Source: a virus
Length of the DNA: 64,000 bases
IMG/VR virus record: IMGVR_UViG_3300045988_059494
Span: 7,219-71,218 of that record
Strand: one strand, 5' to 3'
Below the pieces are notes generated by a model that was not told where the DNA came from, made no database searches, and was given only the letters and a program-made list of their open reading frames with translations. Of the stretch, positions 32,758 to 55,575 are shown piece after piece (position 1 is the stretch's first letter; each line of letters begins with the position of its first letter). The position numbers and the translations under genes are program-made.

Positions 32758-33327
32758 TTAAAGCATTTCAATACATTTCTTTGCCTGCTGTTCCATATCT
32801 TCGATTACAGTATCAAGATGAACGGGATAGCAGTTATGTGAATCAACGCCTACGTGGTAGATGAAAGGAATTTCATTATAGAAGTTGGTAGTCTGATGTG
32901 TGTGTCCAAAAAGATTGCAAGTCACCTGCTTGAGGGATTCTTGCTCAAGATTGCCGGTCAAAGTTGGATAATGCGATGCGTAAAAATGATACTTGCGATA
33001 AGTGAAAGCGTAAGCATCAAATACCGGAATATTTGCTTTAAGATATGCTTCGCGTCTAGCGCGAGTATCGTGATTACCGCCAACAATGAGTTTCTTACCA
33101 TTCATGCGGTTTAGCATTTCAATACCTTTTTCAAGGTTTTCGCTTCCACCAAGCATTAGGTCGCCGCAGATAATCAAAGTATCATCTGGAGAAACAAGCT
33201 CATTATTTCGTGTAATAATAGCTTCATTCATCTCTTCGACACTATCAAAACCGCGAGCCTTCCAGATAAATTCCTTATCATGGTTCAAGTGGTAGTCGCT
33301 AGAAACATAAATATTCAGTGTTATCAC
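32758..33327 (-). CDS. calcineurin-like metallophosphoesterase (candidate 2',3'-cyclic/3'-phosphatase for RNA repair)
   Basis: DxH...GDxxxxG...GNHD motifs; adjacent to the polynucleotide kinase. Confidence 0.6.
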   Translation of the reverse strand: MITLNIYVSSDYHLNHDKEFIWKARGFDSVEEMNEAIITRNNELVSPDDTLIICGDLMLGGSENLEKGIEMLNRMNGKKLIVGGNHDTRARREAYLKANIPVFDAYAFTYRKYHFYASHYPTLTGNLEQESLKQVTCNLFGHTHQTTNFYNEIPFIYHVGVDSHNCYPVHLDTVIEDMEQQAKKCIEML

Positions 33328-33406
33328 TCCTTTTGATTAGTTAATAAAGTAGTCTATTACTCTTGCTAAATCTTCTACTACTGCATAGCTAAACCCTCCT
33401 CTGCAT

Positions 33407-33922
33407 TCAATCTTTTCTCTCGTATCCATGCACATTGATTTTAATATCCGAAAAGCCCCACTTAGTCTTAGGAAGCTCCTTTGCGCTCGGGATCGAAAAT
33501 CCTTTCTTCATATTCTTGATTGCCGAATCCGGCACTCTAGCGAAACCACTACGCTGCGCATTGCGCTTAATTGCAACATCAAGAGGAACATCAATAACCT
33601 CAAAGGTTAGCTTAGTGTGCGGATCTGCTGCCAGTCGACCAAGCAACTTAGCTCGAGAAGCAGGACTGATATGCGTTGCATCAGCAAATACAACATCAAT
33701 ACCAAGTTCCATAGCTTCATTGATCTGTCGCACGAACTCATTGAATACTTCGGTTTCCTTATCGAAGTAGCCATCGTGATCGTTTAAGAGGGACTTCCGC
33801 ACGAAATCTCTGGAAACTACACAAGTGGTGCGGTGATCATCTTCCAGTCGAGCAATCTCTTGCTCGACCCAAGTGGATTTACCACTACCGGGTATACCTA
33901 CCATTACTTTAAGTTCAGTCGT
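33407..33922 (-). CDS. polynucleotide 5'-kinase (P-loop, T4 Pnk kinase-domain-like)
   Basis: VMVGIPGSGKST Walker A; probable start MTTELK with GGAGG SD (track ORF extends upstream). Confidence 0.65.
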   Translation of the reverse strand, partial: TTELKVMVGIPGSGKSTWVEQEIARLEDDHRTTCVVSRDFVRKSLLNDHDGYFDKETEVFNEFVRQINEAMELGIDVVFADATHISPASRAKLLGRLAADPHTKLTFEVIDVPLDVAIKRNAQRSGFARVPDSAIKNMKKGFSIPSAKELPKTKWGFSDIKINVHGYERKD

Positions 33923-34007
33923 CATTCTTCGTACCTCCATATCTAGTTCACAAAAGATACCTTGCCAATGAATACATCTTGTATTTGGTGCACTACAGCG
34001 TTTGCAA

Positions 34008-34232
34008 TCATTCTCCCGTTGCAATGTTATTTACCTTTCTTATAAGGCGCTTAGCCGCGTTCTGCGACATATTTGTTTTTATACCATGACAATATGCCGT
34101 ATAGCGATTACAGTATTTGCATTTCTTTATCCACGTGTCATCAAGCAAATTAGAAAAACGATCTTTATCTTCTAACTCATGGACGCCAAAGAAACATAGC
34201 CATCTCATAGCTTTTTCCCTCCCAAATCTCAA
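34008..34232 (-). CDS. hypothetical small protein (74 aa)
   Basis: ORF track. Confidence 0.3.
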   Translation of the reverse strand: MRFGREKAMRWLCFFGVHELEDKDRFSNLLDDTWIKKCKYCNRYTAYCHGIKTNMSQNAAKRLIRKVNNIATGE

Positions 34233-34249
34233 TAAAAGGATCCCACATC

Positions 34250-34435
34250 TTAAATAACCCCTCTCATTCTTCGATTAGCTTCTGCCATAACCCACGCAAT
34301 ATCTTCATCAGATACTTCGGTTTCAAACTCGATCGAACAATTCTCTCCTTTTGCTCTTGCTTCAAGAATGATGTTAACCGCATCCTCGAGATCTTGCTGA
34401 TGTTCAGCAAACGAAAGAAAAGGGAGAGTATACAT
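34250..34435 (-). CDS. hypothetical small protein (61 aa)
   Basis: ORF track. Confidence 0.3.
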   Translation of the reverse strand: MYTLPFLSFAEHQQDLEDAVNIILEARAKGENCSIEFETEVSDEDIAWVMAEANRRMRGVI

Positions 34436-34605
34436 ATTATTCCTCCTTAATAAACCGATAGATAATATTCATAGACTCTTCAACTGTACACATCTCACTA
34501 TTGGCAAGTGCGCCACTCCAATCGAGGTCGTCAATAATTGCGTCAAGGCGCTTCCATGCTTCAAGAGCCTTGTTCTTATCAATCATATTTATTTTCTCCT
34601 CTCTT

Positions 34606-34642
34606 TCACTTTCTATATATATTATAATATATATTTATAAAA
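34606..34642 (-). promoter_or_regulatory. conserved AT-rich promoter block
   Basis: ctttctatatatattataatatatatttataaaaaaa (plus); family member. Confidence 0.45.
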
Positions 34643-34644
34643 AA

Positions 34645-34674
34645 ATCAAAGGTTCTATTTCTAGAACCTTTGAT
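34645..34674. terminator. hairpin terminator
   Basis: ATCAAAGGTTCTA/TAGAACCTTTGAT. Confidence 0.55.
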
Positions 34675-34680
34675 TTTTAT

Positions 34681-35199
34681 TTAATTGGTTTGCTCAGTAA
34701 AATAGACTTGTGAAAGTCCACCAATGTCATCAATCTCGTAACTATCTACTTTTAATGACCAATCTTCCCATAAGTCCTGATGCGCTAACAAGAAAGCCAA
34801 TGGATCTTTTCGAAAAGTTTTATAGTCTTCGTCAGACAGCTCAAGATCTCCATTGTAATATCCGCCTCGTAGATGGCCAGTAACATAATCTACTTCTGCG
34901 GTTACATTAACTTTATGAGTTACCTCAGCCGGAGTATCAAGAGAGATATAATATTTTTTGCCATTGATTTTCTTCCAGAATGAATAATTACTCTTTGGAT
35001 AGCCGACTTTTCTTTCTAGAATATCTTCCTTGGTATTAGACTGCAATATAATGACCGGGTTTCTACGCGGGTCTTGACCAATTGGGTGGAAATCTACCCC
35101 ATCCGCGCCAGTGATTTCAAGCCATTCTTTCCATCCTGTTTCTCTTTGCCATTCAGCCATAATTATTCCTCTTCGCTCTGGATTAGGGATTCGATACAC
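34681..35199 (-). CDS. hypothetical protein (172 aa)
   Basis: ORF track. Confidence 0.3.
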   Translation of the reverse strand: MYRIPNPERRGIIMAEWQRETGWKEWLEITGADGVDFHPIGQDPRRNPVIILQSNTKEDILERKVGYPKSNYSFWKKINGKKYYISLDTPAEVTHKVNVTAEVDYVTGHLRGGYYNGDLELSDEDYKTFRKDPLAFLLAHQDLWEDWSLKVDSYEIDDIGGLSQVYFTEQTN

Positions 35200-36005
35200 T
35201 TGCGATTTTCGCCGACAAACACGGGAATGTGTTTCTCAATAATCCATTCAGAACGAGTATACTCAATTCCATCGGGAGTTACATCTTGGACCTGAGTCTT
35301 AATACAACAAGAGCCACGCTGATAGGAAATGGGATAACTATCCCACTCAATACCAATATCAGAGAGCATCTTCTTGATTTGGATGCAAGATTTACCTTGA
35401 AGCTCTTTATGAGAGAAATTAGCCTGGCCTACCATCTGGATAGAATTGCGGATTGCATCTGACTGGCGCCAATAAATGAGGTTGGTGACCTCTTCCTTGG
35501 GGATATTGAAGCAACGGGCATCGAACATAGCGCCTTTAGACTTGGCGGTAATTAAAGCTCTCATATACTCTTGATGCTTTTGCTGAATTTCAACGTCTTG
35601 CGGAATTAAGCCAGTTTTCCAACAGGTCTCTTCATCGAGAACGAGTGCATCAAAAGCCTTATTAAAAGCCATAGTCGCCATAGATGCGGCGACAGAGCAC
35701 ATCTTCTGAACCTCATAATCAAACCATGCGGAGCTATTCAGTCGTTTATAATCTACAAGGATAAGAGTAATTTCATCACTCTGGGTATATCCAAGTACAC
35801 AACCTTGAATATTTTGGCACAGGTATCTCATAGTTTCTTGCATAGCAGTTCCAAGAATATGATCGAAAGGCTTGTTAAAACCACGAGTGAAAGTGTGGAA
35901 AGCCTTGCCATCAATGCGGATTGCGACAGGAGTTCTGCGCATCAGTCTAGCCTTAGGAACCGCTTCATAAAACTCTTTCATGCGCATACCAAGTTTATCA
36001 GTCAT
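35163..36005 (-). CDS. Thg1-like protein (tRNA-His guanylyltransferase family, 3'-5' nucleotide addition)
   Basis: N-terminal VAIRIDGKAFHTFTRGF...GYTQSDEITLIL matches Thg1/TLP palm-domain motifs; 280 aa. Confidence 0.75.
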   Translation of the reverse strand: MTDKLGMRMKEFYEAVPKARLMRRTPVAIRIDGKAFHTFTRGFNKPFDHILGTAMQETMRYLCQNIQGCVLGYTQSDEITLILVDYKRLNSSAWFDYEVQKMCSVAASMATMAFNKAFDALVLDEETCWKTGLIPQDVEIQQKHQEYMRALITAKSKGAMFDARCFNIPKEEVTNLIYWRQSDAIRNSIQMVGQANFSHKELQGKSCIQIKKMLSDIGIEWDSYPISYQRGSCCIKTQVQDVTPDGIEYTRSEWIIEKHIPVFVGENRKCIESLIQSEEE

Positions 36006-36152
36006 TCTTTGCTTGCTCCTTCCATTTCTTTCGCTTTTTGTTTAAGTTCCTCAATACTTGTTCCAAGAAGAGCGAAGAAAGTTTCATCGTCCATTTTGGC
36101 GAGATCTCGTTCCATGTTTTCGAGAGTCTTAGATAGCTTACGTAGCTTCATT
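36003..36152 (-). CDS. small hypothetical protein (49 aa), translationally coupled (ATGA overlap) to the Thg1-like gene
   Basis: MKLRKLSKTLENMERDLAKMDDETFF... Confidence 0.3.
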
Positions 36153-36419
36153 AGTCTTTATCCTTTCCGAAAATAGAGGTATTATTATTAAAGAAGCTAC
36201 CGATCCAACCAAGAGTACCTGCACACAGCGGGATCATATCCTTAGTGAACCATGCTACATTGAACATAGTATTCAAACCAGTAGCGAGAATATTACCAAT
36301 CGTGATTGAAGCAATCCAACCACCAAGATAAGCGAACCAAAAATATACGAATGGCTCAATTACAATTAGGAAAACGATACTTACCAACGCACCAATCACA
36401 GACAGAAAATCATCAAACA
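36151..36419 (-). CDS. small membrane protein
   Basis: Hydrophobic; probable start MFDDFLSVIG inside track ORF 36151..36504. Confidence 0.3.
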
Positions 36420-36571
36420 TCCGATTACACTCCTTACGATAAAATAAATAAAATAGACAATAGAGATCATAAGCGCCCACGAACCTATAATAAGTCCTCC
36501 CCAAATGGCAAGTCGAGAGCCGATCCCAACGACTAAGAATATGCTAATAAATAGCATAGATAAAAGTAGTA

Positions 36572-37480
36572 TTAGAAATAACATTTCTGTTTTCGATGCC
36601 CCTTTTCGTAGCAGTAATCTTTGCAATGTTTCGCAGCGGTGTCAGGTCTATGTTCCTTAGGCTGATCGCAATCTAAAGAACCATGCTTATGACATCTACA
36701 AGCAGCATGGCCGCGGAACCATTCACGATAGAAATGTTTACAGTCGTAACATTCTTTGTTCTTCAGTTTTCTCTTTCTCGATCTTTTCGTAGCTACATCA
36801 ATAGTCTGTCTATGTACAGATTGGACTTTTGCCGTTAATCCTCTCTTCATTAACCTATTCAGATTAACTGGCGTGTAGTTAATTACATCAGAGCAAACAT
36901 TCAGATGTCGGTCATCATCTTTGTGACAACGATCATGGATATGACCATGAATGTTGAATACCCAAGGCATCATAGGAAGCGGCTCATGCGATAGAATAAG
37001 TTTCTCACCAATCATGAGAGGCCCTTCATAGATCTCGTCAAACAGATTGTTGTCCGCGCTCACTTCCCAATAAACGAAAGGAGCGTGAAAATCATATATC
37101 TCACTGATAGAATACTTACAACCGGGATATAGCTGCTTCATTTTATCAAGAGCTTCAGATTTACTCCAAAGCTCTGTATCATAAATTCTCTTGACAATCT
37201 TGCGCTCGTAGTTACTGCGGCCGGCATCATGGTTTCCCATAATAAGTACCTTATAACCACGAAGTTTAGCGCACACAGCTGGGTCGCCGCAATCTCCAAG
37301 AATAATGAGCGTATCCTTCTTACCAACTTTACTATTGATAAGTTTAACTTGTTCTTCCGCGGAGGGACGTTCTGGCATACCTGCTACAATCTCTTCATCA
37401 TTGAAGTGAGGATCAGAGTAGATATATACCGTGCCTTGAGCGTGCCAGTGGTCAAAGATCTTATAGAGTCCAGGGATCAT
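36572..37480 (-). CDS. metallophosphoesterase with C-terminal Cys/His-rich zinc-binding tail
   Basis: YIYSDPHFNDEE...LIILGDCGD...GNHD motifs; C-terminal CYDCKHF...CRCHKHGSLDC. Confidence 0.55.
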   Translation of the reverse strand: MIPGLYKIFDHWHAQGTVYIYSDPHFNDEEIVAGMPERPSAEEQVKLINSKVGKKDTLIILGDCGDPAVCAKLRGYKVLIMGNHDAGRSNYERKIVKRIYDTELWSKSEALDKMKQLYPGCKYSISEIYDFHAPFVYWEVSADNNLFDEIYEGPLMIGEKLILSHEPLPMMPWVFNIHGHIHDRCHKDDDRHLNVCSDVINYTPVNLNRLMKRGLTAKVQSVHRQTIDVATKRSRKRKLKNKECYDCKHFYREWFRGHAACRCHKHGSLDCDQPKEHRPDTAAKHCKDYCYEKGHRKQKCYF

Positions 37481-37565
37481 TACAAAACCTCCTTAGTTAA
37501 ATCAATCGCATTATCTGCAATAAATGGATAATCTAAATCAAATAAGATATAACAGCCATTACTTT

Positions 37566-37612
37566 TCATTCTTCTTTATTTTATGTATATATAATAACAT
37601 ATATTTTATAAA
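37566..37612 (-). promoter_or_regulatory. conserved extended -10 promoter block
   Basis: Coding strand TTTATAAAATATATGTTATTATATATACATAAAATAAAG. Confidence 0.45.
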
Positions 37613-37616
37613 AAAT

Positions 37617-37640
37617 AAAGGGAGCTTAAAGCTCCCTTAA
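37617..37640. terminator. hairpin terminator
   Basis: GGGAGCtttaaGCTCCC. Confidence 0.5.
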
Positions 37641-37649
37641 AATCTATAT

Positions 37650-38384
37650 TCACCACGGAAAAGTAGGCATCGGCTCTACCTTATGGAGATTACGCTGGTG
37701 ACGTCCCATAATGTTGGCGAAGGTGTTGTAGTCAGGTACATTGCCAAATACAAGAAAATCATCTAGCTCTTTGTAGGTAAAACCAAGATTATCTTCGTCA
37801 GTTTTTCCACTAAGACCATCTTCCGGTACTTTGTTAATAAACTCTTCCGGCAAGCCCAGTTCTCTACCAATAGCAAGAACTTCCTTTACTGTAAGGTTCG
37901 ACAGAAGAGAGAAATCACCTGCGGAGTCGCCAAACTTAGTAGAATAACCAATAAAATCCTCGCTCTTGTTGCAGGTATTTGCTACTCTACCATGTTCAAG
38001 CGCAGCAATAGCATAAAGCACTGTCATGCGGACGCGGGCAGGAGAGTTAGAAGTAACTTGGGGATTGTTTTTAACCGTACTATCAAAATCATACCCCTCA
38101 TCAATAGCATGATATAAGGATTCACAGACATCGCCAATATTGATTTCGTAACTCCGAATACCGAGATAATCAATTACTTTATTGGCAATGTCGATGTCAT
38201 GCTGATTGCCCTGCGGCATCTTTACACCAATTACCCTATCTTTTCCGAGCGCTTTAACGAGCAGGGCCGCAGTTACGGTGCTATCTTTACCGCCAGAAAT
38301 ACCTACGATTGCCTTGCAATCTGCGCCATTCTGCACAAAATAGTGCTTAGTCCAATCTAAAATCTTAGGAATTACTTTCTCCAT
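37650..38384 (-). CDS. nadE: NH3-dependent NAD+ synthetase
   Basis: PP-loop SGGKDST motif, 244 aa. Confidence 0.8.
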   Translation of the reverse strand: MEKVIPKILDWTKHYFVQNGADCKAIVGISGGKDSTVTAALLVKALGKDRVIGVKMPQGNQHDIDIANKVIDYLGIRSYEINIGDVCESLYHAIDEGYDFDSTVKNNPQVTSNSPARVRMTVLYAIAALEHGRVANTCNKSEDFIGYSTKFGDSAGDFSLLSNLTVKEVLAIGRELGLPEEFINKVPEDGLSGKTDEDNLGFTYKELDDFLVFGNVPDYNTFANIMGRHQRNLHKVEPMPTFPW

Positions 38385-38833
38385 GTTTTGAGTTCTCCTT
38401 CTGTTTCAAGTCTATTATATACTTCTCTCAATATTGCGAACGCATTACCAAGTCCAGCGCGATCATCGAGCAAAATATTGTAATAAATTTTTCGTGCTGG
38501 GATATGCTTTTCTGGTGGAAGAATATCTTCATTGATATAGTCAAATGGAATATTATTGTCGCGTAAATATTTTTCAATATACGGATAACGCTCTTCCGCA
38601 GAGGCGGTAAATACAACGAGCTTGGCATATGGTTCCCATGCCCGCAGCAAGTTAATTACGCCATCATAGCGCCACTGTTCATCTTTGAAATTATGGACAG
38701 TATAATCAAAGTCAAATGCTATGATTATACTGCCATACTTCTTATATTCGCTATATAGTCTTTCAGCGGCATTATGAGTGTAGATATATGGATCACATAA
38801 AACCTTCTCGGTAGAGTCTTGCTCTAATATCAT
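38372..38833 (-). CDS. HAD-superfamily phosphatase
   Basis: Motif I FDFDYTV; 153 aa. Confidence 0.5.
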   Translation of the reverse strand: MILEQDSTEKVLCDPYIYTHNAAERLYSEYKKYGSIIIAFDFDYTVHNFKDEQWRYDGVINLLRAWEPYAKLVVFTASAEERYPYIEKYLRDNNIPFDYINEDILPPEKHIPARKIYYNILLDDRAGLGNAFAILREVYNRLETEGELKTWRK

Positions 38834-40517
38834 GTAATGTATCCTCCTTAATCATAGTGCCATTACGGAAAATGGGCTGAAGCAGATTGTCTTCACCAAG
38901 GTGCTCATTCCAAGTCAGCTCATCTTCATAATTCTGACCATCAAGAGAAACTCGGCAGCAACCCTTTTGAGATCTCTTCCAGCTAAGCGCTTTAGGCTGC
39001 TTATAGATCATAATAGGCTTGCCATTTGCATCTTCTGCGTAAGTAGCTTTTACCGCGATGCCGAAAGTATCTCGCGTATAAGGGTTAAACTTACCATCTT
39101 CCTCAAGGCACATGAACGAGAACGAACCCACGCCAAGTGAAGTATTATTGATAGCAAATCCATTATTCACAAGGCGATGGTAAATGCGGGCGCAACGCTG
39201 AGGGGTAATACTGTCGCCGTAGATTGCTTTGATATGGGGATCAAGAACCTTATAACCCTTGCTATTGATGGTGCCACCGAAGATGTCCCATAGGCGCCAA
39301 ACAGTGCCCTTATCCTCAGAGGTCAGTTCATAGTTTTCAATCAGTTTGACGTTATAACCCTCAATGTACCAATATTTGCAATCAGTACAAGCGCCGCGCT
39401 CATTAGTCCATTCGACTGTAATGTCAGCAAGAGCATACTCTCCATTGTAAGAGAAAATCTGCTGAGTGTCCTTCTCTAAGTCTCGCTCAAAGAACTCAGC
39501 AATAAATTCATTGGGATCATCTTTCAGCTGTTCCCACTCTTGCTCGTCGAGATAGATAATTTCCTTACCCGCGATAATCTCTACAGGATCGCCGCTATCG
39601 CCACGAATAGAAAGGCAACCATCATGCGCCATAATTTCGTCTTTTAACTGCGGAAGGATCTTATCTACGAGTCTCCAATAGTCATAACTATCAGATACCA
39701 TAGAGAAATTGTGGTGAGGATAAATCTCTGTTAGAAGTCTGCGGATGTGGGTAATCTCATCACCATCAACCGCGTAATTAGAACACATAACACTGTGCTC
39801 TGTAGAGATTGCGCCATAAGCAACAGGCTCAGTAGCGCAATCGCAATTATAGTTCTTCTCAAGCCACATGATTGCGGGTACAGTAGCAGTATTCAAGAAA
39901 GAAAGACACCAACCCGCAGAACTCTTAATCGCGGATTCCGCAGACTGCTGACCGCGCATAGAAAAATCGCCAAGCAGTCGAGCAACAGAAACATCATCAT
40001 CGCAACTAATATCGTGATACTTCTGCACAATCTGCCGATACCGATAGCCGACTTCCGCGGATACCTGCGTGTGCCACATGGTTGCAGACAGCAGAGTTTC
40101 AATGGTATTTACAAGCCAAACAAAGTTTGGATGGGTATTAGTAATCTCAATCTGCGGAACTCCAATCGCAGTTCTAGTACCTTCCGGGACAGCGGAGATT
40201 TCAAGCGGCAAATAACCGAGCCGATGCAGTTCTCTAATCTTATCAGACTGGAAAGCACCTTTACCGAGCGTGGCATTGAGCACACGTTCATACTCGGTTA
40301 CTACCTCGTCTTCCGAACGATTAAAGAAGCTATCGTTGAAGCCTGCAATAAGATATTCTTTAATAAAGGCTTGCAGACCAAAGAGAGTAACTTTATCAAC
40401 TCCCTGCAGCCTACTCATACGAGGAGTATAGTAACTAACCATCTTAGTTAATCCCGCAGGATACTGTTCATGGTGAGTGCTCTTATAGAAATCAATCATT
40501 AAAAGAGGATTAAACAT
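38793..40517 (-). CDS. nicotinamide/nicotinate phosphoribosyltransferase (NAMPT/PncB family)
   Basis: MFNPLLMIDFYKSTHHEQYP N-terminus typical of the NAPRTase family; 574 aa. Confidence 0.75.
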   Translation of the reverse strand: MFNPLLMIDFYKSTHHEQYPAGLTKMVSYYTPRMSRLQGVDKVTLFGLQAFIKEYLIAGFNDSFFNRSEDEVVTEYERVLNATLGKGAFQSDKIRELHRLGYLPLEISAVPEGTRTAIGVPQIEITNTHPNFVWLVNTIETLLSATMWHTQVSAEVGYRYRQIVQKYHDISCDDDVSVARLLGDFSMRGQQSAESAIKSSAGWCLSFLNTATVPAIMWLEKNYNCDCATEPVAYGAISTEHSVMCSNYAVDGDEITHIRRLLTEIYPHHNFSMVSDSYDYWRLVDKILPQLKDEIMAHDGCLSIRGDSGDPVEIIAGKEIIYLDEQEWEQLKDDPNEFIAEFFERDLEKDTQQIFSYNGEYALADITVEWTNERGACTDCKYWYIEGYNVKLIENYELTSEDKGTVWRLWDIFGGTINSKGYKVLDPHIKAIYGDSITPQRCARIYHRLVNNGFAINNTSLGVGSFSFMCLEEDGKFNPYTRDTFGIAVKATYAEDANGKPIMIYKQPKALSWKRSQKGCCRVSLDGQNYEDELTWNEHLGEDNLLQPIFRNGTMIKEDTLHDIRARLYREGFM

Positions 40518-40535
40518 TTATGCAAAACTCCTTTA

Positions 40536-41345
40536 TTAAAGAATAATAGGATCGACAGTGATGAGATCAGTTGGGAAAGTACCAGCAAGAGAGTTGGTTG
40601 TAAAGATATGCTCAACCAGTCCACTCTTGATTAGGTCTCCTTCCATGATAGTGGTTTCGCAATGAGTAATAAAGAGATAAATGTTCTTCGCACCCTCAGC
40701 CTTAAGTGCCTTAGCGGAATGGAAGAAGGTGCCGCCGCGCGAACAAATATCATCAACAATGAGAATATTTTTACCTCTTACAGCTTCCTTGTTGATAATA
40801 TCAATGCCTTTAATGTTACCAGTCGCCCAATCGCGCTTCTTCATGCCGAAACTATAAGGACGATTAAACTGTTCAGAATATCTCTTCATTGCTCCCTCAT
40901 CAGGATAATACATCACAAGATCCGGATCGTTAATTGTGTTGATCGCACGCTCAACAAAAGGAGTGTTATCACGATTCTCGATACGATCAATAAGTGCCAG
41001 ACTTACATTGCTGTGTGCATCATAGACAACTACCTTAGAGAAATTGAGCGAGTTGATAATGCCTGCGAAGCTCTTGAGAGTAAAAACATCATTAGGACTC
41101 TTTACTCTGTCCATGCGGGCGTGCGGACAGTAGGGCATATAAAGCGAGATACTATCATTGCAATAGTGGTTCTTTAAGCAAATAAGCGAGAATAATTCTG
41201 CATCGTTTTCATAGTCCCATCGTATTGCGGAAACAAAAGTATGACTCAGCTTCGGGGGTTCTAAATGCAAAGTCCCATCTGGAAAATGACTCTGAATAAC
41301 TGGCAGCCAAGTTCCAGGGTAATGGAAAGTTTTAACAGAAAGCAT
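40536..41345 (-). CDS. prs: ribose-phosphate pyrophosphokinase (PRPP synthetase)
   Basis: PRPP-binding ILIVDDICSRGGTF motif; likely start MLSVKTF. Confidence 0.8.
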   Translation of the reverse strand: MLSVKTFHYPGTWLPVIQSHFPDGTLHLEPPKLSHTFVSAIRWDYENDAELFSLICLKNHYCNDSISLYMPYCPHARMDRVKSPNDVFTLKSFAGIINSLNFSKVVVYDAHSNVSLALIDRIENRDNTPFVERAINTINDPDLVMYYPDEGAMKRYSEQFNRPYSFGMKKRDWATGNIKGIDIINKEAVRGKNILIVDDICSRGGTFFHSAKALKAEGAKNIYLFITHCETTIMEGDLIKSGLVEHIFTTNSLAGTFPTDLITVDPIIL

Positions 41346-41361
41346 AAATATTCTCCTCTCC

Positions 41362-41874
41362 TTACACAATTTTAATCTGGCAAGACTTCATTACTGCCAG
41401 AGCTGCTTCATGCGCTTCCTTGGTAGTACCGGCACACCAATCCTTATGGCACACAATTTCTCTATTGGGATAGAGTGCTCGAAGGATCAGCGCATTCGAT
41501 ACAACACAAATGTCAGTGCAAACACCGCAAATCTCAATCTGCGCAGTATCCTTTACCGGCATATTCTTCCACATAAAGGTACCAAAAGTATCCTTATCAA
41601 CCACATAAAGGTTCTTAATTGCAGAAGCCGCGTCTGTCAGCTCTGGAACAATATCCCAACCCTCGGTATTCTTCACACAATGCTGAACCGGCAGGTACTT
41701 GCCTTCAAGAGTATTGAGGTAATCATCATCGTGGGTGTCACGAGTAAAGACAACCATATCGTAGTCCTTAATATGATCGGCAATGTTCTTTGTCGCAGTC
41801 TGAGCAGCTTCAGAACCAAGTGCGCCGGTCACAAAATCGTTCTGCATATCAATTACAATAAGAATTTTCTTCAT
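41362..41874 (-). CDS. isochorismatase-family nicotinamidase (PncA-like)
   Basis: MKKILIVIDMQNDF start with catalytic Asp; Cys in ICGVCTDICV. Confidence 0.65.
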   Translation of the reverse strand: MKKILIVIDMQNDFVTGALGSEAAQTATKNIADHIKDYDMVVFTRDTHDDDYLNTLEGKYLPVQHCVKNTEGWDIVPELTDAASAIKNLYVVDKDTFGTFMWKNMPVKDTAQIEICGVCTDICVVSNALILRALYPNREIVCHKDWCAGTTKEAHEAALAVMKSCQIKIV

Positions 41875-41898
41875 AGGGAAAACTCCTTTCCTTATTCT

Positions 41899-41935
41899 TT
41901 ATGTATATATTATATCATAATTATTTATAAAAATA
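41899..41935 (-). promoter_or_regulatory. conserved extended -10 promoter (coding strand TTATGATATAATATATACATAAAGAA)
   Basis: TGaTATAAT 37 nt upstream of ATG 41874, with SD AAGGAAAGGAG between. Confidence 0.55.
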
Positions 41936-41937
41936 AA

Positions 41938-41961
41938 AGAGAGCCTTTGAACAAGGCTCTC
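41938..41961. terminator. hairpin terminator
   Basis: AGAGCCTTtgaacAAGGCTCT. Confidence 0.5.
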
Positions 41962-41967
41962 ATATCT

Positions 41968-42357
41968 TTAATCCAGACCAATAGGTTTAATATCAAGCAC
42001 CCTATCCGGATACATACTCCAGTTTTTCCAATTCCTCTTGCTTGCCTGCATTTCTGCGAGCCGCTTATTAGCTTCTACCATATCAGCCATATAGAGTAGA
42101 TTGTCACTATTGATGTTATTTTTTTCAGTTAGTGCAGCAATAGTCTGTCTCTGGATTTCAAACGATGCTTCAAAGTTTTTATATTCCATGCTATAAGAAA
42201 TAGCAACAAGCAGAATAACTAAGGTCGTCGCGCCACAAAAAACTGCACCGAGCGCCGCAATCCAATCGTATTCATGGCCAAATACCTTGATAGAAACGAT
42301 AAGTAGCATTACAAACAGCATCGCTGCGATAAGTGCAACAATCATCCAATTAACCAT
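41968..42357 (-). CDS. membrane protein, hypothetical
   Basis: N-terminal TM helices; 129 aa. Confidence 0.3.
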   Translation of the reverse strand: MVNWMIVALIAAMLFVMLLIVSIKVFGHEYDWIAALGAVFCGATTLVILLVAISYSMEYKNFEASFEIQRQTIAALTEKNNINSDNLLYMADMVEANKRLAEMQASKRNWKNWSMYPDRVLDIKPIGLD

Positions 42358-42518
42358 TTATATTCTCCTTTATGCAAATAATGTAATATACGCAAATGCA
42401 ACCGCTAAATTGCCAAACAGAAACCCTGCTTGATATGCGGTTGCCGGATCTGCTTGGTCAGCACCAATGGCCCGACCAAGAATAATTACAGCAATCCATA
42501 GGATGAAAGAAATAATCT

Positions 42519-43784
42519 TCATACTTCCTGTGCTTCCTCCATATCCGGTGCATTTTCAGTCTCCTTAATGATGCCTTCAAGTACCTTAAACTCGTAGGTC
42601 TTAGACTTGAAAGCAGTGAAGGAACGACGATTTACAATACGAATTACAACGCCTTCCTTGACATGAGTTTTGCCAATTGGGTCTGCAAGATCCTCGAAGT
42701 AATCATTGATGCGCTTCAACAGATCATCTACGGTAGTAAACTCAAAGTTGTCAATCACTGGTACTCGATTAAAGCCATGCTCATCACACCATGCAGTAAT
42801 CTCGTCAGGAGTCCACTCACGCTCGCCGTTCTCAGAAGTGATGCGGTAAATCCACATATGAGACTCACCCGGCTCGCATCCATAAGAGAAAATAGAACGC
42901 TTGCCGAACTGTTTCTGGAAAGCCTTGTCTTTCAGCTTCGAGTTATCGCCAATCGGCATGATAGTATCTCCATCGCCGAGACCATAGTAACCTACAACCT
43001 CGTAAAAGACTTCCATACCCGGCTCAAGGAACGGCTTCAGCGCCTCGTGATGCGGCAGTCGGAACTTATTATCACCGTAGTAGCCACCATCATCCTCAGA
43101 GACTACACAACGACGAGTACCAAGTACATAAGCCTGCTTAGTACGCTTCTTCATATGAAACAGGCGACGGAAGAAACCATTCGGCAGCTCCGCAACAGTA
43201 TTCATAGAACGCTGAGAAGTACCATGCATTTTAAGAGTCATGTTTAGCTGATCGCCCGGACGGAACGCATCAAGATTGTAAGCAAGCTGTGCAGTATCAA
43301 TGTGCATTGCAAAATCCGGATATACAACGCCCTCTGCCTTACGACCCTTATAAGAGGTCTTAGCCACAGTCTGCGGATACTTGCGCTTCGGGATATACTT
43401 GCGGCAGAACTCTTTATCATTGACGGTATTTACCTTATCACCATCCTCCCAGTGCTGATCGCCAAATACTTCATAGACATGGTCAAGAGAAATGACAATA
43501 CCAGAACTCTGGTTGCCACGGAGCTTAATTGCCCGGATGTGAGAGCTATTTTCCAAATATCCGCCTTGAGGAGTGCCATCGAGATTTTTTCGATATAAGG
43601 TGAAAGCATCGCCGAACCATCTCTCAATCTCTCCGTCTGTAGGAAGATAAAGCACTAACTCATTTTCTTTCATGTTGGACCCAACAATAACTCCTTCATT
43701 AAAACAATCTGCAAGCCACAGATTATCAGAATTGGGATCTTTATGCAGATTATTCAATTTTGTCACTAAAGCATAGTAAGCCAT
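42519..43784 (-). CDS. ATP-dependent RNA ligase (Rnl2-like nucleotidyltransferase with N-terminal extension)
   Basis: Motif I KMHGTS (KxHGxN), motif IV EGVVIR, motif V FKSK; 421 aa. Confidence 0.7.
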   Translation of the reverse strand: MAYYALVTKLNNLHKDPNSDNLWLADCFNEGVIVGSNMKENELVLYLPTDGEIERWFGDAFTLYRKNLDGTPQGGYLENSSHIRAIKLRGNQSSGIVISLDHVYEVFGDQHWEDGDKVNTVNDKEFCRKYIPKRKYPQTVAKTSYKGRKAEGVVYPDFAMHIDTAQLAYNLDAFRPGDQLNMTLKMHGTSQRSMNTVAELPNGFFRRLFHMKKRTKQAYVLGTRRCVVSEDDGGYYGDNKFRLPHHEALKPFLEPGMEVFYEVVGYYGLGDGDTIMPIGDNSKLKDKAFQKQFGKRSIFSYGCEPGESHMWIYRITSENGEREWTPDEITAWCDEHGFNRVPVIDNFEFTTVDDLLKRINDYFEDLADPIGKTHVKEGVVIRIVNRRSFTAFKSKTYEFKVLEGIIKETENAPDMEEAQEV

Positions 43785-46673: not shown

Positions 46674-47465
46674 TTAAAGCTCCTTCTGGATTGCGGCTTT
46701 CACGATATTATACTGCACATCATCAAGCAGTTCATCGACCTCAGGATCGCAAGACTTACCTACTTTCTCACAAAATGCGTCCGCAGTTACAAGAACATCT
46801 TCCATCGCACTGTTGGCAGAAATGCGCGCTTGCTCAAGATTAAAATATCCCTGCTTAACTGCGACAAGAAATTCTGGATTGCGGGGATGCAGACAATCTT
46901 CGTAAGACTCGCCCTCAGTGTAACGATGGATATACTCCTGTACTCTCAGTAGATGGTGCAGCTGTTTTGGATCGTAGCCATATTTAGCGAGAACTGCGAC
47001 TTTACTAGGGTACTCATGTTCCATCGCATGGTACTTCTCCATAGCAATACCCTTCATGGTTTTTACCGCACTATAAGGGGAATAATGCGCGATTTTCTCG
47101 CGCTCCGCAGTCAGTCTATTCCACTCATCTGCGAAAAGCGGATTTACCCACAGATAAGGAGTGAACAGGATCTCGATGAAATTGAGATTTTGCTTGCGGA
47201 AAGTAGAGAACATCAGGCGAATATCTTTAAGGTCAGTATGCTCATCGTTGGCACGAACATGAGTGGTACTAATAGGTTTCTTATTGAAAACAATCTCCTT
47301 AAAGGTAGGAGTGAGGATCAGTTTGGTATCCACATCGCTGGTCGGGATCTGCAAGCCATAATTTTGAGAACCTTGGAGGAAGATACCTACGATACGAGAG
47401 TTATCAAATCTCTCTTTTGCTTCCTCCAGATGGTCATGAACACGCTGCATAATTTTATTTTCCAT
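46674..47465 (-). CDS. Pol-beta-superfamily nucleotidyltransferase (GS-x9-SDVD motif)
   Basis: GIFLQGSQNYGLQIPTSDVDTKL matches the minimal NTase / OAS / CD-NTase-type active site; probable start MENKIMQ with GGAGG SD. Confidence 0.5.
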   Translation of the reverse strand: MENKIMQRVHDHLEEAKERFDNSRIVGIFLQGSQNYGLQIPTSDVDTKLILTPTFKEIVFNKKPISTTHVRANDEHTDLKDIRLMFSTFRKQNLNFIEILFTPYLWVNPLFADEWNRLTAEREKIAHYSPYSAVKTMKGIAMEKYHAMEHEYPSKVAVLAKYGYDPKQLHHLLRVQEYIHRYTEGESYEDCLHPRNPEFLVAVKQGYFNLEQARISANSAMEDVLVTADAFCEKVGKSCDPEVDELLDDVQYNIVKAAIQKEL

Positions 47466-53979: not shown

Positions 53980-54055
53980 TGGAGCAAACGGCTGGATTCG
54001 AACCAGCGATCACGGGGTTGCAGCCCGCTGTCTTAATCCACTTGACTACGTTCGC
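53980..54055 (-). tRNA. tRNA-Cys(GCA)
   Basis: Hand-folded cloverleaf: acceptor GCGAACG/CGTTTGC, anticodon loop CUGCAAC, T-loop GGTTCGAATCC, U73, encoded CCA. Confidence 0.7.
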
Positions 54056-54075
54056 ATAAGAGCGGCAAAAGCCGC

Positions 54076-54327
54076 TTAATCGGTCATTAAGACTACATTG
54101 GAAATATGTGTAAGATATGTTACATCATCAATCTTGATTTGAATAGTGTCACCATCGTCAAAGTCTTTCCAAGACTGAACTGTGCCATCAACTACTGTGC
54201 CATCTGGCATCGAGATAATTGCTCTATTAAAATAGAAATTAGTATCTAAAATCTGACGGTTTCCGCATCCAGTTAAGCAGAATGCTAAACCCGCAGCTGC
54301 AACCAGCGCCACAATCTTCTTTTTCAT
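54076..54327 (-). CDS. small lipoprotein
   Basis: MKKKIVALVAAAGLAFCLTGCGN signal peptide with lipobox; the track ORF extension overlapping tRNA-Leu is spurious. Confidence 0.5.
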   Translation of the reverse strand: MKKKIVALVAAAGLAFCLTGCGNRQILDTNFYFNRAIISMPDGTVVDGTVQSWKDFDDGDTIQIKIDDVTYLTHISNVVLMTD

Positions 54328-54354
54328 TGTTTTATAACCCTTTCTGTAAGTTAA

Positions 54355-54436
54355 TGGTAGGCGAGGAGGGACTCGAACCCTCACGCATAAGCAGCAGATT
54401 TTGAGTCTGCCGTGTCTACCATTCCACCACTCGCCC
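54355..54436 (-). tRNA. tRNA-Leu(CAA), type II
   Basis: Acceptor GGGCGAG/CTCGCCT (G1-U72), anticodon loop CUCAAAA, long variable arm, A73, CCA. Confidence 0.65.
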
Positions 54437-54560
54437 ATAGGAGAAGAGAATTATCGCAAGAAGAAGCGAACATTATTCTTCTTTTGATAATCCATCTCAG
54501 CCTGATAAACGCCCTTGAAGAAGTGTCTTACCTTATTCAGCATTATTAAATCCCTCACTT

Positions 54561-54596
54561 TCTATAAATATTATATCATAATATTTATTTTATTGC
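54561..54596 (-). promoter_or_regulatory. palindromic promoter variant TATAAATATTATATCATAATATTTAT upstream of the tRNA-Leu/Cys unit
   Basis: Near-perfect 26-bp palindrome containing TGATATAAT on the coding strand; near-identical copies at 61326 and 62419. Confidence 0.5.
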
Positions 54597-54640
54597 AAAT
54601 TTTTCATTTATTGCTTTCATTGTAAATAATCCAGGACTGC

Positions 54641-55093
54641 TTAGCAGCTATCCTTTTCGTCCATCTTCGCCCCGCAGTACCTGCAATAGTAGCTATCACT
54701 ACTCTCTGCGTTTCCGCATTCGCTACAAGTGAGTACGCCATCATCATGGTGAATCCATCTCCCATGCACCACTGGGACGACATCGGCGGTAGGAAGCGCC
54801 TTAATCCTCTCTGCGTACCAACTCGGATAATGCGCTTCCGGCGCTTCGCTGAAGATTGTATTCAGCGCGGCTTCTTTCGTGATGTATTTAGCCATCAACT
54901 GACTTCCGTCCAAATATTCCCGCAGTAGCGGACAGTGCGCCGCCGGGACCGCCGTGCAGAATCCGCCGACCGCAGTACAGTTCCCGTTATCCTTATGCCT
55001 AAAGCGGCAACGCAGGCAATTAACATTTTCCATCACATTTCCTCCTCCATCGGCATCCGTTACAGGCCACATGAACCAGCGTGTAGTTTCCAT
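54641..55093 (-). CDS. Cys-rich hypothetical protein in a locally GC-rich segment
   Basis: 150 aa with CLRCRF, CTAVGGFC, CSECGN, CRYCG clusters; composition differs from the surroundings. Confidence 0.35.
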   Translation of the reverse strand: METTRWFMWPVTDADGGGNVMENVNCLRCRFRHKDNGNCTAVGGFCTAVPAAHCPLLREYLDGSQLMAKYITKEAALNTIFSEAPEAHYPSWYAERIKALPTADVVPVVHGRWIHHDDGVLTCSECGNAESSDSYYCRYCGAKMDEKDSC

Positions 55094-55111
55094 ATTTCTC
55101 GTCTAATTTGT

Positions 55112-55205
55112 TGGCGGAGGGCGAGAGACTCGAACTCTCACGCCGTTGTTCACGGTTACTAGCGGTTTTCAGGACCGCTCCCTTGCCAATTAGGGTTAGC
55201 CCTCC
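55112..55205 (-). tRNA. tRNA-Ser(UGA), type II
   Basis: Acceptor GGAGGGC/GCCCTCC, anticodon loop CCUGAAA, long variable arm, G73, CCA. Confidence 0.65.
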
Positions 55206-55242
55206 GTATAGAGCAGTTTTATATCCTGCTCAGGATAGCAGC

Positions 55243-55575
55243 TTATGTAGTTTCAAGGAACTCTTGTTCAGCTTCCATAACTTCACGCAGTTCATGCGCA
55301 GCCTTATTCTCATAATCAGCCATATCAGAATAATGAGCAACCGCATCATCATAAATGCGTCTAGCCTCAAGTTTCTTCGCCGTTGCGCGCTTCATACGCT
55401 TGCGGGCAATCTTTTCCGCACACCGCAGAGCAGCAATCTGCTTACCCTTCTCCAGTGAAAACTCGTCATCTGCATGGCATACTGCAACGCCTCGCACTAC
55501 TCTGCCTGCGTAGGTGGAAACCGCAATTACACGAGAACCATTGGTATAAAACTTGTACTTCTCAATCGGATACAT
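55243..55575 (-). CDS. hypothetical protein; paralog of the N-terminal domain of 30593..31102
   Basis: ORF track; shared motif. Confidence 0.3.
   Translation of the reverse strand: MYPIEKYKFYTNGSRVIAVSTYAGRVVRGVAVCHADDEFSLEKGKQIAALRCAEKIARKRMKRATAKKLEARRIYDDAVAHYSDMADYENKAAHELREVMEAEQEFLETT

Follow-up and report, generated by a model that had tools for sequence, protein, structure and literature searches.

A predicted RNA end-repair set with a Thg1-like protein in a large gut phage

The participation of Thg1-like enzymes, together with polynucleotide kinase (PNK) and RNA ligase, in RNA repair (phages included) is a published genomic prediction, and so is the cooperation of RlaP with RNA ligase (PMC2904730, PMC7824862). 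In jumbo phages, the RNA-repair repertoire comprises RNA ligases, PNK, HAD, HD and calcineurin phosphatases, RlaP, a CCA enzyme and Thg1 (Iyer et al., 2021, PMC7824862); the ligase classes given there are RtcB, Rnl1 and Rnl2, and the term "Rnl5" is absent from the text. Here we describe a window of 64,000 nucleotides from a large gut phage with a genome of ∼140 kb (IMG/VR record IMGVR_UViG_3300045988_059494, positions 7,219 to 71,218). Judging from its sequence, we consider it rather likely that the region at 32758-43784 encodes a multi-enzyme set for the repair of RNA ends, most probably those of tRNA, arranged in three units around a NAD+ cassette. It would be a set of the kind foreseen by comparative genomics, found here in a large gut phage.

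Gene order and predicted transcription units

The five genes on which a sequence-only reading had based its proposal, encoding a polynucleotide kinase, a Thg1-like protein (TLP), two metallophosphoesterases (MPE_A and MPE_B) and an RNA ligase (RNL), are all present on the minus strand at the coordinates given below. They are spread over 11 kb, broken up by a NAD+ salvage block and several small ORFs. Their description as a clustered set holds in so far as their order is kept in related phages, but the genes are not contiguous and fall into three predicted transcription units, split by terminator-like hairpins and by the inserted NAD+ cassette. The ligase unit, in which the ligase gene is followed by a 50-aa ORF and a 129-aa membrane ORF, would end at a hairpin at 41939..41961 (minus strand, 9-bp stem with five GC pairs, T-run), and the five-gene NAD+ cassette (37650-41874), which lies inside the five-gene interval, at a second one (37618..37638, minus strand, 9-bp stem, T-run). 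The predicted end of the MPE_B-TLP unit is a palindromic hairpin with a 17-bp stem (34641..34678, minus strand), which the scan reported on the plus strand and whose palindromic stem would equally fold on the gene (minus) strand; a promoter-like site (34649-34621) comes after it. The cassette is mobile, and it is missing from loci L009, L013, L015 and L021. Neither this cassette, within the interval, nor a gene for an RlaP-like nucleotidyltransferase beyond it figured in the sequence-only reading.

Three nucleotides past the TLP stop codon starts a gene for a 159-aa protein of unassigned function (34681..35160, minus strand), which gave zero matches in Pfam, PHROG and NCBIfam. Its 68 homologues all come from the same gut-phage group, with synteny in 13 loci, and judged by these it is restricted to the phage clade of this window.

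Families and active sites of the encoded proteins

The 280-aa TLP (35163..36005, minus strand) is predicted to be a bacterial-type templated 3′-5′ RNA polymerase. It matches PF04446 above the family cutoff (E = 4e-28) and phrog_4717 (E = 7e-85), and its closest solved relative is the TLP of Bacillus thuringiensis (BtTLP, 4kgk; E = 3.9e-51). D31, D76 and E77 align with D30, D75 and E76 of BtTLP, and R29, K44 and S75 likewise align with functional BtTLP residues; with all three catalytic carboxylates kept and the PF04446 match, the proposed Thg1-like identity stands.

The 171-aa kinase (33407..33922, minus strand) consists of the kinase domain only. It matches Pfam AAA_33 (E = 2.6e-18), phrog_505 "polynucleotide kinase" (E = 3e-21) and TIGR04075 of bacterial Pnkp (E = 2e-9), and its top PDB match is T4 Pnk (1ly1, E = 6e-6). 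Its P-loop GSGKST and the motif RDfvR (RDxxR) align with K15/S16 and D35/R38 of the T4 enzyme, an active-site pattern that bears out its assignment as a polynucleotide 5′-kinase.

MPE_A (189 aa, 32758..33327, minus strand) is encoded immediately downstream of the kinase, and MPE_B (302 aa, 36572..37480, minus strand) is an aq_1665-like protein with a Cys/His-rich C-terminal tail. As calcineurin-type phosphoesterases both had been recognized correctly: they match Pfam Metallophos families (PF12850, E = 2e-7, for MPE_A; PF00149, E = 6e-6, for MPE_B) and phrog_547 (E = 4e-41 and 4e-29, respectively), and they have full metal-binding motifs, whose ligands are invariant in an alignment of 15 sequences. 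The profile of the family, which is uncharacterised, matches aq_1665 (1xm7) with E = 4e-24. A search for similarity to the Clostridium thermocellum Pnkp or lambda phosphatases detected none, nor was sequence similarity to any solved Pnkp phosphatase detected. MPE_A is predicted to act as a 2′,3′-cyclic or 3′-phosphate esterase and MPE_B to heal RNA 3′ ends.

The 421-aa ATP-dependent ligase (42519..43784, minus strand) matches PF09414 (E = 5e-9) and phrog_968 (E = 2e-47), a family with 373 phage records. Motifs I, Ia, III, IIIa, IV and V are invariant, adenylylation is predicted to occur at Lys185 of the KMHGTS motif, and a distinct ATP-dependent DNA ligase (PF01068) is encoded at 21706-22854 in the replication module, in agreement with the earlier assignment as an RNA ligase. 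Its labelling as Rnl2-type, by contrast, was wrong, and the protein is Rnl5-like (DraRnl/NgrRnl type). An N-terminal OB-like domain precedes the C-terminal nucleotidyltransferase (NTase) domain; TIGR02306 (DRB0094 ligase) is matched with E = 1.8e-8, at 33.7 bits against an equivalog cutoff of 151 bits, and the N-domain of the Naegleria gruberi ligase NgrRnl (5cot) in a profile search with E = 1e-3. With an AF2 model (pLDDT 77), the best 13 Foldseek matches were the N. gruberi RNA ligase (E ∼1e-14), whereas Rnl2 gave E ∼1e-6.

A predicted sixth component of the set is the RlaP-like Pol-beta nucleotidyltransferase (46674..47465, minus strand), located beyond the 32758-43784 interval. It matches phrog_388 "nucleotidyltransferase" (E = 2e-21) and shows a GS...DVD motif in its translation; PF10127 (RlaP) is its best Pfam match at E = 1e-3, with a score of 19.2 bits that falls short of the cutoff (23). 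Its predicted role is the restoration of nucleotides at 3′ ends.

Conserved neighbourhoods, tRNA genes and alternative readings

The order RNL-(NAD block)-MPE_B-TLP-u172-PNK-MPE_A is common to 22 related contigs with protein identities of 55-98%, and the clustering is therefore beyond chance. TLP, PNK and MPE_A are consecutive in one sub-clade (L003-L008, 55-70% identity), MPE_B remains beside the TLP where the NAD+ cassette is missing, and the kinase-MPE pair is conserved in 22 loci with a TLP and some 30 with a ligase. Linkage of the TLP to repair partners is lineage-specific: within 10 kb of the TLP, 58 of 80 loci lack any repair partner, and in Fnu1, Bcp1 and Shewanella phage 1/4 the TLP stands without one nearby. 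Proximity to Pnkp recurs in Omega-like mycobacteriophages (0.9 kb in Hannaconda) and is absent from most other TLP-carrying phages; in Vibrio phage 1.170.O, 1.3 kb separate the TLP from a COG0617 CCA-enzyme-like gene.

The linkage of ligase and kinase extends further, to phage ligases that are only 25-45% identical. Among 57 distant ligase loci (L113-L169, identity only 39-45%), a PNK homologue is found no more than 10 kb from the ligase in 34, and in 29 of these it lies within ∼3.5 kb downstream. An RlaP-like gene occurs in 15 of the 57, directly between ligase and kinase in 12 of these, and throughout the clade of the window a homologue lies ∼3 kb upstream of the ligase. MPE_A-like genes adjoin the ligase in 12 distant loci; in 11 of them (L158-L168) the gene immediately precedes the ligase, and in L142 it comes just after it. 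In L105 an MPE_B homologue is immediately upstream of the ligase. Among cultured phages, Bacillus phage vB_BcoS-136 and Microbacterium phage Necrophoxinus have PNK next to a ligase of the same family, and in Mycobacterium phage OhShagHennessy the two are ∼3.5 kb apart; in these three phages the PNK includes a phosphatase domain of the HD or HAD type, in contrast to the separate metallophosphoesterase found here. These conserved neighbourhoods support a healing-and-sealing module, as had been proposed.

The window also contains a block of 12 tRNA genes (53980..63696, minus strand; ARAGORN), which in relatives runs on to about 30-35 tRNAs, tRNA-His among them, and whose products are likely substrates of the repair set. 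In the clade of the window, the tRNA-His gene lies ∼0.6 kb past the window end. All clade contigs have tRNA-Arg followed by tRNA-His (...GCCA-T-GTGGCTG...CAGTCAC-C-CCA), with T at -1, a G1:C72 pair and C73. G-1 is not encoded, and the TLP may therefore install it, a role as concrete as repair and a new lead.

We see some chance, though clearly the smaller one, that the TLP chiefly matures the phage's own tRNA-His rather than repairing damage. RNase P would free a tRNA beginning at G+1, the TLP would add G-1 opposite C73 as the identity element required by bacterial HisRS, and its position beside kinase and phosphoesterase would be incidental or reflect a secondary repair role. Templated addition of G-1 opposite C73 is an in vitro activity of bacterial and archaeal TLPs, and a G-1 addition assay is mentioned in part of the literature on BtTLP. 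A separate paper deals with tRNA 5′-end repair by TLPs (PMC3061083). In Salmonella, G is present at -1 of the chromosomal gene, whereas the TLP-carrying Bacillus phage Bc431v3, like every contig of the window's clade, does not encode it; the tRNA-His of Bc431v3, however, has A73, which a templated enzyme would not pair with G. Covariation across phages between TLP presence and tRNA-His lacking G-1 was not seen: the TLP-negative T4-like phages CHI14, JD18 and EcS1 share the T at -1, as does L365 with a syntenic slot devoid of TLP, while G at -1 is encoded in the TLP-positive sister sub-clade L334-L339, and Bacillus phage BM10 carries a TLP without any tRNA-His.

It seems unlikely to us that the genes have accessory or counter-defence functions with no relation to each other and merely share a variable early region. 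The phosphoesterases might then, for instance, break down nucleotides used in immune signalling, or ADPR derivatives for the NAD+ pathway encoded next to them, and the kinase act on small molecules. The separate predicted transcription units would suit this, with the mobile cassette, membrane ORFs, DenV and an SPFH protein in between, as would an MPE family without known substrate, the weak NCBIfam similarity of MPE_A to a cyclic-nucleotide phosphodiesterase and an anti-phage phosphoesterase, and the known recruitment of accessory phosphatases by NARP1 operons. But the phosphatase known from NARP1 is of the Macro-domain type and no metallophosphoesterase, MPE_B keeps to the TLP without the cassette, and the kinase has the 5′-OH-binding RDxxR motif and polynucleotide and tRNA kinases as nearest relatives; moreover, adjacent pairs of kinase and phosphoesterase, ligase and kinase, and ligase and RlaP turn up repeatedly in phages at identities of 25-45%. 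Less probable still is a service of ligase and kinase in DNA replication or repair, sealing 3′-OH-ribonucleotide nicks in RNA:DNA hybrids such as primer remnants instead of tRNA. The nearest structural relative, NgrRnl, acts on duplex nicks bearing an RNA 3′-OH strand; its depositors titled it a "nick-sealing RNA ligase" (5cot). DenV, a pyrimidine-dimer glycosylase, is encoded a short way upstream of the ligase. Yet replication is served by a module of its own, 15-40 kb away, that includes a DNA ligase and RNase H, and the conserved partners of the ligase are RlaP and PNK, along with tRNA blocks.

A possible repair pathway and its relation to known systems

In the favoured reading, an RNA break with 5′-OH and 2′,3′-cyclic or 3′-phosphate ends, possibly made by a host anticodon or acceptor nuclease, would be phosphorylated at its 5′ end by the kinase. 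One or both aq_1665-family metallophosphoesterases would clear the 3′ end, a step carried out in relatives by a HAD or HD domain that forms part of the kinase protein. The RlaP-like nucleotidyltransferase may replace nucleotides lost on the 3′ side, and the Rnl5-type ligase would seal the nick in the folded RNA. The TLP would offer a second route, in which nucleotides are added in the 3′-5′ direction, with the 3′ strand of the acceptor stem as template, to rebuild a shortened or incomplete 5′ end; the 5′-phosphate that it needs could come from the kinase. The tRNA-repair interpretation of the sequence-only reading is thus plausible in the light of enzymes and neighbourhoods that fit it, apart from the mistaken Rnl2 label, and had been proposed previously (Anantharaman et al., 2010; Iyer et al., 2021).

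With T4 Pnkp and Rnl1, which counter the PrrC anticodon nuclease, the proposed pathway shares the sequence of 5′-kinase, 3′-phosphate removal and ATP-dependent RNA ligation, encoded by a virulent phage carrying tRNAs, and the kinase is homologous to the kinase domain of T4 Pnk. It lacks the fused HAD phosphatase, however, in place of which there are stand-alone metallophosphoesterases; the ligase is Rnl5-like instead of Rnl1, and the RlaP-like NTase and the TLP are additional. The three chemistries, with a calcineurin-type phosphoesterase as 3′-end healer, and a related kinase domain are likewise found in C. thermocellum Pnkp of the Pnkp-Hen1 system, but kinase, metallophosphoesterase and ligase form one polypeptide there and are separate proteins here. 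Compared to NgrRnl (5cot) and DraRnl (TIGR02306), the ligase has the same OB-like N-domain, NTase domain and KxHGTS motif I, although identity is just ∼13-15% and the protein is longer (421 versus ∼340 aa) and has insertions in the NTase domain. The TLP is phage-encoded, unlike the bacterial BtTLP (4kgk), to which it is ∼40-45% identical across two aligned blocks with the catalytic D/D/E and activation residues kept, and it has an insertion of ∼40 aa (residues 119-158). As in the Thg1-PNK(-Macro, -ligase) operons predicted for bacteria (Anantharaman et al., 2010, PMC2904730), a polynucleotide kinase neighbours the TLP, whose partners here include metallophosphoesterases and there a Macro domain. 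Parts list and proposed role are essentially those given for jumbo phages (Iyer et al., 2021, PMC7824862), whereas the phage described here, with its genome of this size, is no jumbo phage.

Predicted end-healing and sealing enzymes

All five open reading frames from which the sequence-only reading had assembled a toolkit for tRNA and RNA end repair are present as described, all of them on the minus strand. The polynucleotide kinase (33407-33922), 171 aa long when read from the ATG at 33922, has matches to AAA_33 and to the PHROG "polynucleotide kinase"; the solved proteins closest to it are T4 Pnk, the archaeal L-seryl-tRNA(Sec) kinase and the kinase domain of C. thermocellum Pnkp. Its GIPGSGKST and SRDFVR motifs align to GCPGSGKST and NRDDYR of T4, i.e., to the P-loop and to the Asp general base and Arg (D35 and R38 in T4); the RDxxR element holds the 5'-OH end. 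Whereas T4 Pnkp is bifunctional through a fused HAD 3'-phosphatase, the window enzyme is a kinase only and has no HAD domain.

Two metallophosphoesterases, MPE_A (32758-33327, 189 aa) and MPE_B (36572-37480, 302 aa), match Metallophos and one and the same PHROG (547). Both contain all of the calcineurin-like motifs (DxH, GD, GNHD, H and GHxH), and the metal ligands D11, H13, D56, N85, H86, H119, H142 and H144 are invariant in a 15-sequence alignment including both window paralogues; judged by these signatures, their assignment to the calcineurin-like metallophosphoesterases is certain. A profile built from the 15-homologue alignment matched only aq_1665 (E = 4e-24), a structural-genomics protein without assigned function, followed by GpdQ and MJ0936, and no characterised RNA-end phosphoesterase of the Pnkp type was recognisable as a homologue in this search of solved structures. 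A role at RNA ends is predicted for both proteins because of their gene context. The best argument concerns MPE_A: homologous kinases of cultured phages carry a fused phosphatase (HAD domains with DxDGT in actinophages, an HD domain in Bacillus phages), while the window kinase stands alone with a metallophosphoesterase gene next after it, so that the fused phosphatase appears displaced by the separate MPE_A gene, which would then be the 3'-end healing enzyme. MPE_B ends in a Cys/His-rich C-terminal extension of ~60 aa (36572-36760) in the window and in one related contig (locus L001, 302 aa); in other relatives the protein has ~243 aa and no such extension.

The ligase (42519-43784) is indeed an RNA ligase, but its earlier designation as Rnl2-type does not hold. 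Motifs I, Ia, III, IIIa, IV and V are present, and the set K185-x-HGTS, GTRR, E262-x-x-G, Y313-R314, E377-G-x-x-x-R382 and K393-x-K395 is invariant among nine homologues, down to 27% identity. In Rnl2 an N-terminal nucleotidyltransferase (NTase) domain is followed by an Rnl2-specific C-terminal helical domain, whereas here the catalytic NTase domain is C-terminal. The ~180 residues preceding it form an OB-like domain, and their profile matches the N-terminal domain of the Naegleria gruberi RNA ligase NgrRnl (5cot; E = 1e-3). The sole NCBIfam match is the model of Deinococcus DRB0094 (TIGR02306), with 33.7 bits against an equivalog cutoff of 151, a score so far below the cutoff that it marks the protein as distantly related and argues against calling it an equivalog. 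Foldseek with an AlphaFold model (pLDDT 77, pTM 0.65) placed NgrRnl structures at ranks 1-13 (E ~1e-14), with both domains aligned over the full length, followed by Rnl3, REL1 and Rnl2 at ~1e-6 with the NTase core only, T4 Rnl2 included. Profile, NCBIfam match and structural search thus rule out Rnl2 and favour an Rnl5-like label. A DNA ligase, the outcome on which the earlier claim might have foundered, is rejected as well, because a canonical ATP-dependent DNA ligase (PF01068) sits in the replication module of the same genome; RNA ligases fill ranks 1-13 and 16-32 of the Foldseek search, the exception at ranks 14-15 being 3qwu, titled by its depositors a putative ATP-dependent DNA ligase. 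The predicted reaction is that of the Rnl5 family, i.e., sealing of 3'-OH/5'-PO4 nicks with an RNA 3'-OH strand. Ligases of this Rnl5-like family occur in 373 phage records.

A further component had escaped the sequence-only reading, whose list of five repair genes otherwise stands. The ORF at 46674-47465 encodes a Pol-beta-type nucleotidyltransferase (phrog_388, E = 2e-21), for which the best Pfam match is PF10127 (RlaP, the "RNA repair pathway" family), at 19.2 bits (E = 1e-3) and thus below the cutoff of 23. We know of no characterised example of either RlaP nucleotidyltransferases or phage Rnl5-like ligases.

The Thg1-like protein and the phage tRNA-His

The Thg1-like protein (TLP; 35163-36005, 280 aa) scores 98.4 bits against Pfam PF04446 (cutoff 29.2; E = 4e-28) and matches PHROG 4717 with E = 7e-85; 158 phage records include an annotated TLP gene. 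Among solved structures the window protein is closest to the TLP of Bacillus thuringiensis (BtTLP, 4kgk; E = 3.9e-51), the eukaryotic Thg1 structures scoring only ~1e-4 (human Thg1, 3otb, 7e-5), and by these scores it is a bacterial TLP, not a eukaryotic Thg1. The catalytic carboxylates of Thg1, on which its earlier recognition had been made to depend, are all three present: in a phmmer alignment to 4kgk, D31, D76 and E77 coincide with the metal-binding and catalytic carboxylates D30, D75 and E76 of BtTLP (residue roles from PMC3701042), and the activation Lys and Ser align as K44 and S75. An insertion of ~40 residues relative to BtTLP (residues ~119-158, window 35530-35650) lies between two aligned blocks. 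Bacterial-type TLPs repair 5'-truncated tRNAs in vitro, yet to our knowledge they have no established cellular job. The predicted activity of the phage protein is templated 3'-5' nucleotide addition at the tRNA 5' end.

Twelve tRNA genes are found in the window (53980-63696) and ~30-35 in relatives, where tRNA-His maps ~0.6 kb past the window end (L170, 1705-1781). In these relatives (L170, L171-L179) a single T separates it from the CCA of the preceding tRNA-Arg(acg), and it shows T at -1, a G1:C72 pair and discriminator C73. Bacterial HisRS requires G-1 on tRNA-His. The main rival explanation for TLP is that it matures the phage tRNA-His: as the clade's tRNA-His gene lacks G-1, TLP would install it opposite C73, which could template the addition by a 3'-5' polymerase, and the chromosomal tRNA-His of Salmonella has G at -1. 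But T at -1 is also encountered in three TLP-negative T4-like phages and in a relative that has no TLP at the syntenic slot, G at -1 is encoded in a TLP-positive sister sub-clade (L334-L339), the TLP-positive phage Bc431v3 has C at -1 with A73, and BM10, also TLP-positive, has no tRNA-His at all. Across the sampled phages and contigs, presence of TLP and absence of G-1 from tRNA-His gave a mixed picture with no clean covariation. Eleven unrelated viral contigs had G (seven) or T (four) at -1; the two DNA-pattern scans for tRNA-His returned mainly unrelated contigs or host tRNAs at prophage borders and did not reach TLP-negative sister contigs. A G-1 role is chemically attractive for the window's clade, but as a general reason for phage TLPs it is not supported by the survey, and we consider maturation of tRNA-His an unlikely explanation.

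The tRNA-His of the sister sub-clade (e.g., L334, 3345-3420) encodes G-1, but its first acceptor pair is a mismatched U1.C72 in five of the six contigs and U1-A72 in the sixth (L336). A broader and equally doubtful version would make the phage the installer of its own tRNA identity, with TLP adding G-1 opposite C73 and maybe rebuilding the U1.C72 of the sister group, and with kinase and phosphoesterase extending its reach to damaged 5' ends. If true, phage tRNA-His would be functional only during infection, and a bacterial-type TLP would for the first time have a physiological role. For the window, 5'-editing of tRNAs in the mitochondrial style was rejected, since all 12 of its tRNAs have normal, well-paired acceptor stems, which argues against a need for it; across relatives, 1:72 mismatches are confined to initiator-type C1xA72, a suppressor tRNA (maybe mis-registered) and the tRNA-His of the sister sub-clade.

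One tRNA gene in the window (59553-59626), its anticodon loop 8 nt long and its anticodon given as "taaa" by ARAGORN, is kept in relatives L171-L179. A suppressor tRNA with the anticodon CUA, assigned as "Pyl", is also encoded in relatives, a hint that phages of this group may recode or read through TAG. A pair of adjacent genes for DUF7192 (272 aa) and DUF2828/DUF7788 (524 aa) proteins at 50888-53391 adjoins the tRNA block.

Gene neighbourhoods and the NAD+ cassette

The source is a large phage genome, with 39.5% G+C in the window and nearly all genes on the minus strand. Its replication module encodes NrdD, RecD-like and DnaB helicases, RecJ, primase, gyrase A and B, the ATP-dependent DNA ligase and RNase H, as well as a DNA polymerase III alpha. 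The polymerase is seemingly split between two ORFs (4267-5673 and 6821-9334, separated by ~1.1 kb with small ORFs), with PHP, core and finger domains in one ORF and HHH_6 in the other. Megablast of the 11-kb region of the repair genes against 50,697 phage records found no close cultured relative at the DNA level, and relatives were therefore drawn from IMG/VR, where related contigs of 80-160 kb are numerous; one of them, IMGVR_UViG_3300045988_055134 (loci L001, L090 and L170), is fully syntenic with the window, its proteins being 86-99% identical.

Terminator-like hairpins (41961-41939, 37638-37618, 34678-34641 and 31227-31198; consensus matches only) delimit four predicted units. The first would run from DenV to the ligase and two small membrane ORFs; the second would comprise PncA, a PRPP-synthetase-like and a NAMPT-like protein, a HAD-like 153-aa ORF and NadE; the third MPE_B, a 117-aa membrane ORF, a 49-aa ORF, TLP and a 159-aa protein; and the fourth two small ORFs, kinase, MPE_A and an SPFH protein. 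Domain, profile and homologue searches found no family or distant homologue for the 159-aa ORF. In all close relatives, synteny with the repair genes extends to the SPFH/flotillin-like protein (31232-32719, 495 aa) and to a fusion of PIN domain and PhoH ATPase (29063-30433), and in Fusobacterium phage Fnu1 a prohibitin-family gene lies ~0.7 kb from TLP.

The interval 32758-43784, treated as one repair cluster by the sequence-only reading, does hold the repair genes, but the second unit within it, which went unrecognised, is unrelated to them. This block (37650-41874) encodes an isochorismatase/PncA-like protein, a PRPP-synthetase-like protein scoring under the TIGR01251 cutoff, a 574-aa NAMPT/NAPRT-like protein, the 153-aa ORF with HAD-like DxDxT motifs, and NadE. 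It is a cassette, present in some close relatives and missing in L009, L013, L015 and L021, and the positions of MPE_B and TLP are unchanged with or without it. As a pair, the PRPP-synthetase-like and NAMPT-like proteins resemble the published NARP1 pathway (Adps + Namat), and the added PncA and NadE might make it a NARP1 variant using a nicotinate/deamido route. MPE_B as a NARP1-associated phosphatase was rejected, the published accessory phosphatase being a Macro domain and MPE_B being kept where the cassette is absent. The same pair lies within a few kb of an Rnl5-like ligase and/or polynucleotide kinase in L084, L085, L086, L129, L139 and L153/L154, as in the window (37650-43784), and the phages concerned are unrelated (Bacillus, Alishewanella, Mycobacterium and several IMG/VR lineages); this recurrent proximity may reflect a shared counter-defence island.

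Conservation of the repair genes was followed in two sets of 80 loci each. Of those centred on TLP, 22 belong to the window lineage (L001-L021 and L025), and most of these keep the order ligase ... MPE_B-TLP-unknown-kinase-MPE_A, with TLP, kinase and MPE_A back to back in sub-clade L003-L008. The other 58 (TLP 59-65% identical) have, a few weak matches aside, no repair partner within 10 kb of TLP, and at least one of these genomes has a ligase ~11 kb off (L037 and L155, on one contig). The ligase-centred set includes 57 loci with only 39-45% identity. A kinase homologue is located within 10 kb of the ligase in 34 of the 57 (~3.5 kb downstream or less in 29), and an MPE_A-like gene adjoins the ligase in 12: in 11 it immediately precedes the ligase, and in L142 it closely follows. 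The RlaP-like gene is found in 15 of the 57, mostly between ligase and kinase (L123, L129, L132, L144-L149, L156 and L157) and in L133 immediately after the kinase; in the window's clade it lies 3 kb upstream of the ligase. Among cultured phages, the same ligase family adjoins a polynucleotide kinase in Bacillus phage vB_BcoS-136 and Microbacterium phage Necrophoxinus and lies ~3.5 kb from one in Mycobacterium phage OhShagHennessy. In Hannaconda, an Omega-like mycobacteriophage, 0.9 kb separate TLP from Pnkp, and in a Vibrio phage a CCA-enzyme-like gene lies 1.3 kb away from TLP; in Fnu1, Bcp1 and Shewanella phage 1/4 TLP has no Pnkp- or CCA-type neighbours. That ligase, RlaP-like enzyme, kinase and phosphoesterase form one module is well supported, and TLP is a lineage-specific addition to it. 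Homologues of the kinase or the Rnl5-like ligase also lie a few kb from tRNA genes in four unrelated contigs found via tRNA-His (L189, L190, L192 and L197).

Proposed repair of both tRNA ends and comparison with known systems

On balance, the most likely function of the set is the healing, end filling and sealing of RNA, probably tRNA, with TLP giving 5'-end rebuilding. The gene set noticed from sequence is real, once its ligase is relabelled, the RlaP-like enzyme added and the NAD+ cassette set apart. One phage lineage unites TLP, an RlaP-like enzyme, an Rnl5-like ligase, a split kinase/phosphoesterase pair and ~30 tRNA genes, and offers natural variants that differ in the presence of TLP and of the NAD+ cassette; it is therefore well suited to asking whether broken tRNAs are rebuilt at both ends by phages, and could also reveal whether a phage tRNA-His gene product devoid of G-1 receives it from TLP.

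Conserved bacterial neighbourhoods of Thg1 and polynucleotide kinase, sometimes with Macro or RNA-ligase genes, were described by Anantharaman, Iyer and Aravind, who proposed that in RNA repair Thg1 owes its 5'-phosphate to the kinase and noted a Thg1 in a caudovirus (Anantharaman et al., 2010; PMC2904730). The RNA-repair repertoire of jumbo phages was later listed as RNA ligases, polynucleotide kinase, HAD, HD and calcineurin-like phosphatases, RlaP, CCA enzyme and Thg1 (Iyer et al., 2021; PMC7824862). Because of these genomic predictions our interpretation is not new, and as an observation it mostly confirms them. The window adds a further instance, an Rnl5-like ligase with a split kinase/metallophosphoesterase, an RlaP-like enzyme and TLP in a ~140-kb gut phage, and its worth lies in providing a compact, naturally variable system for first experiments.
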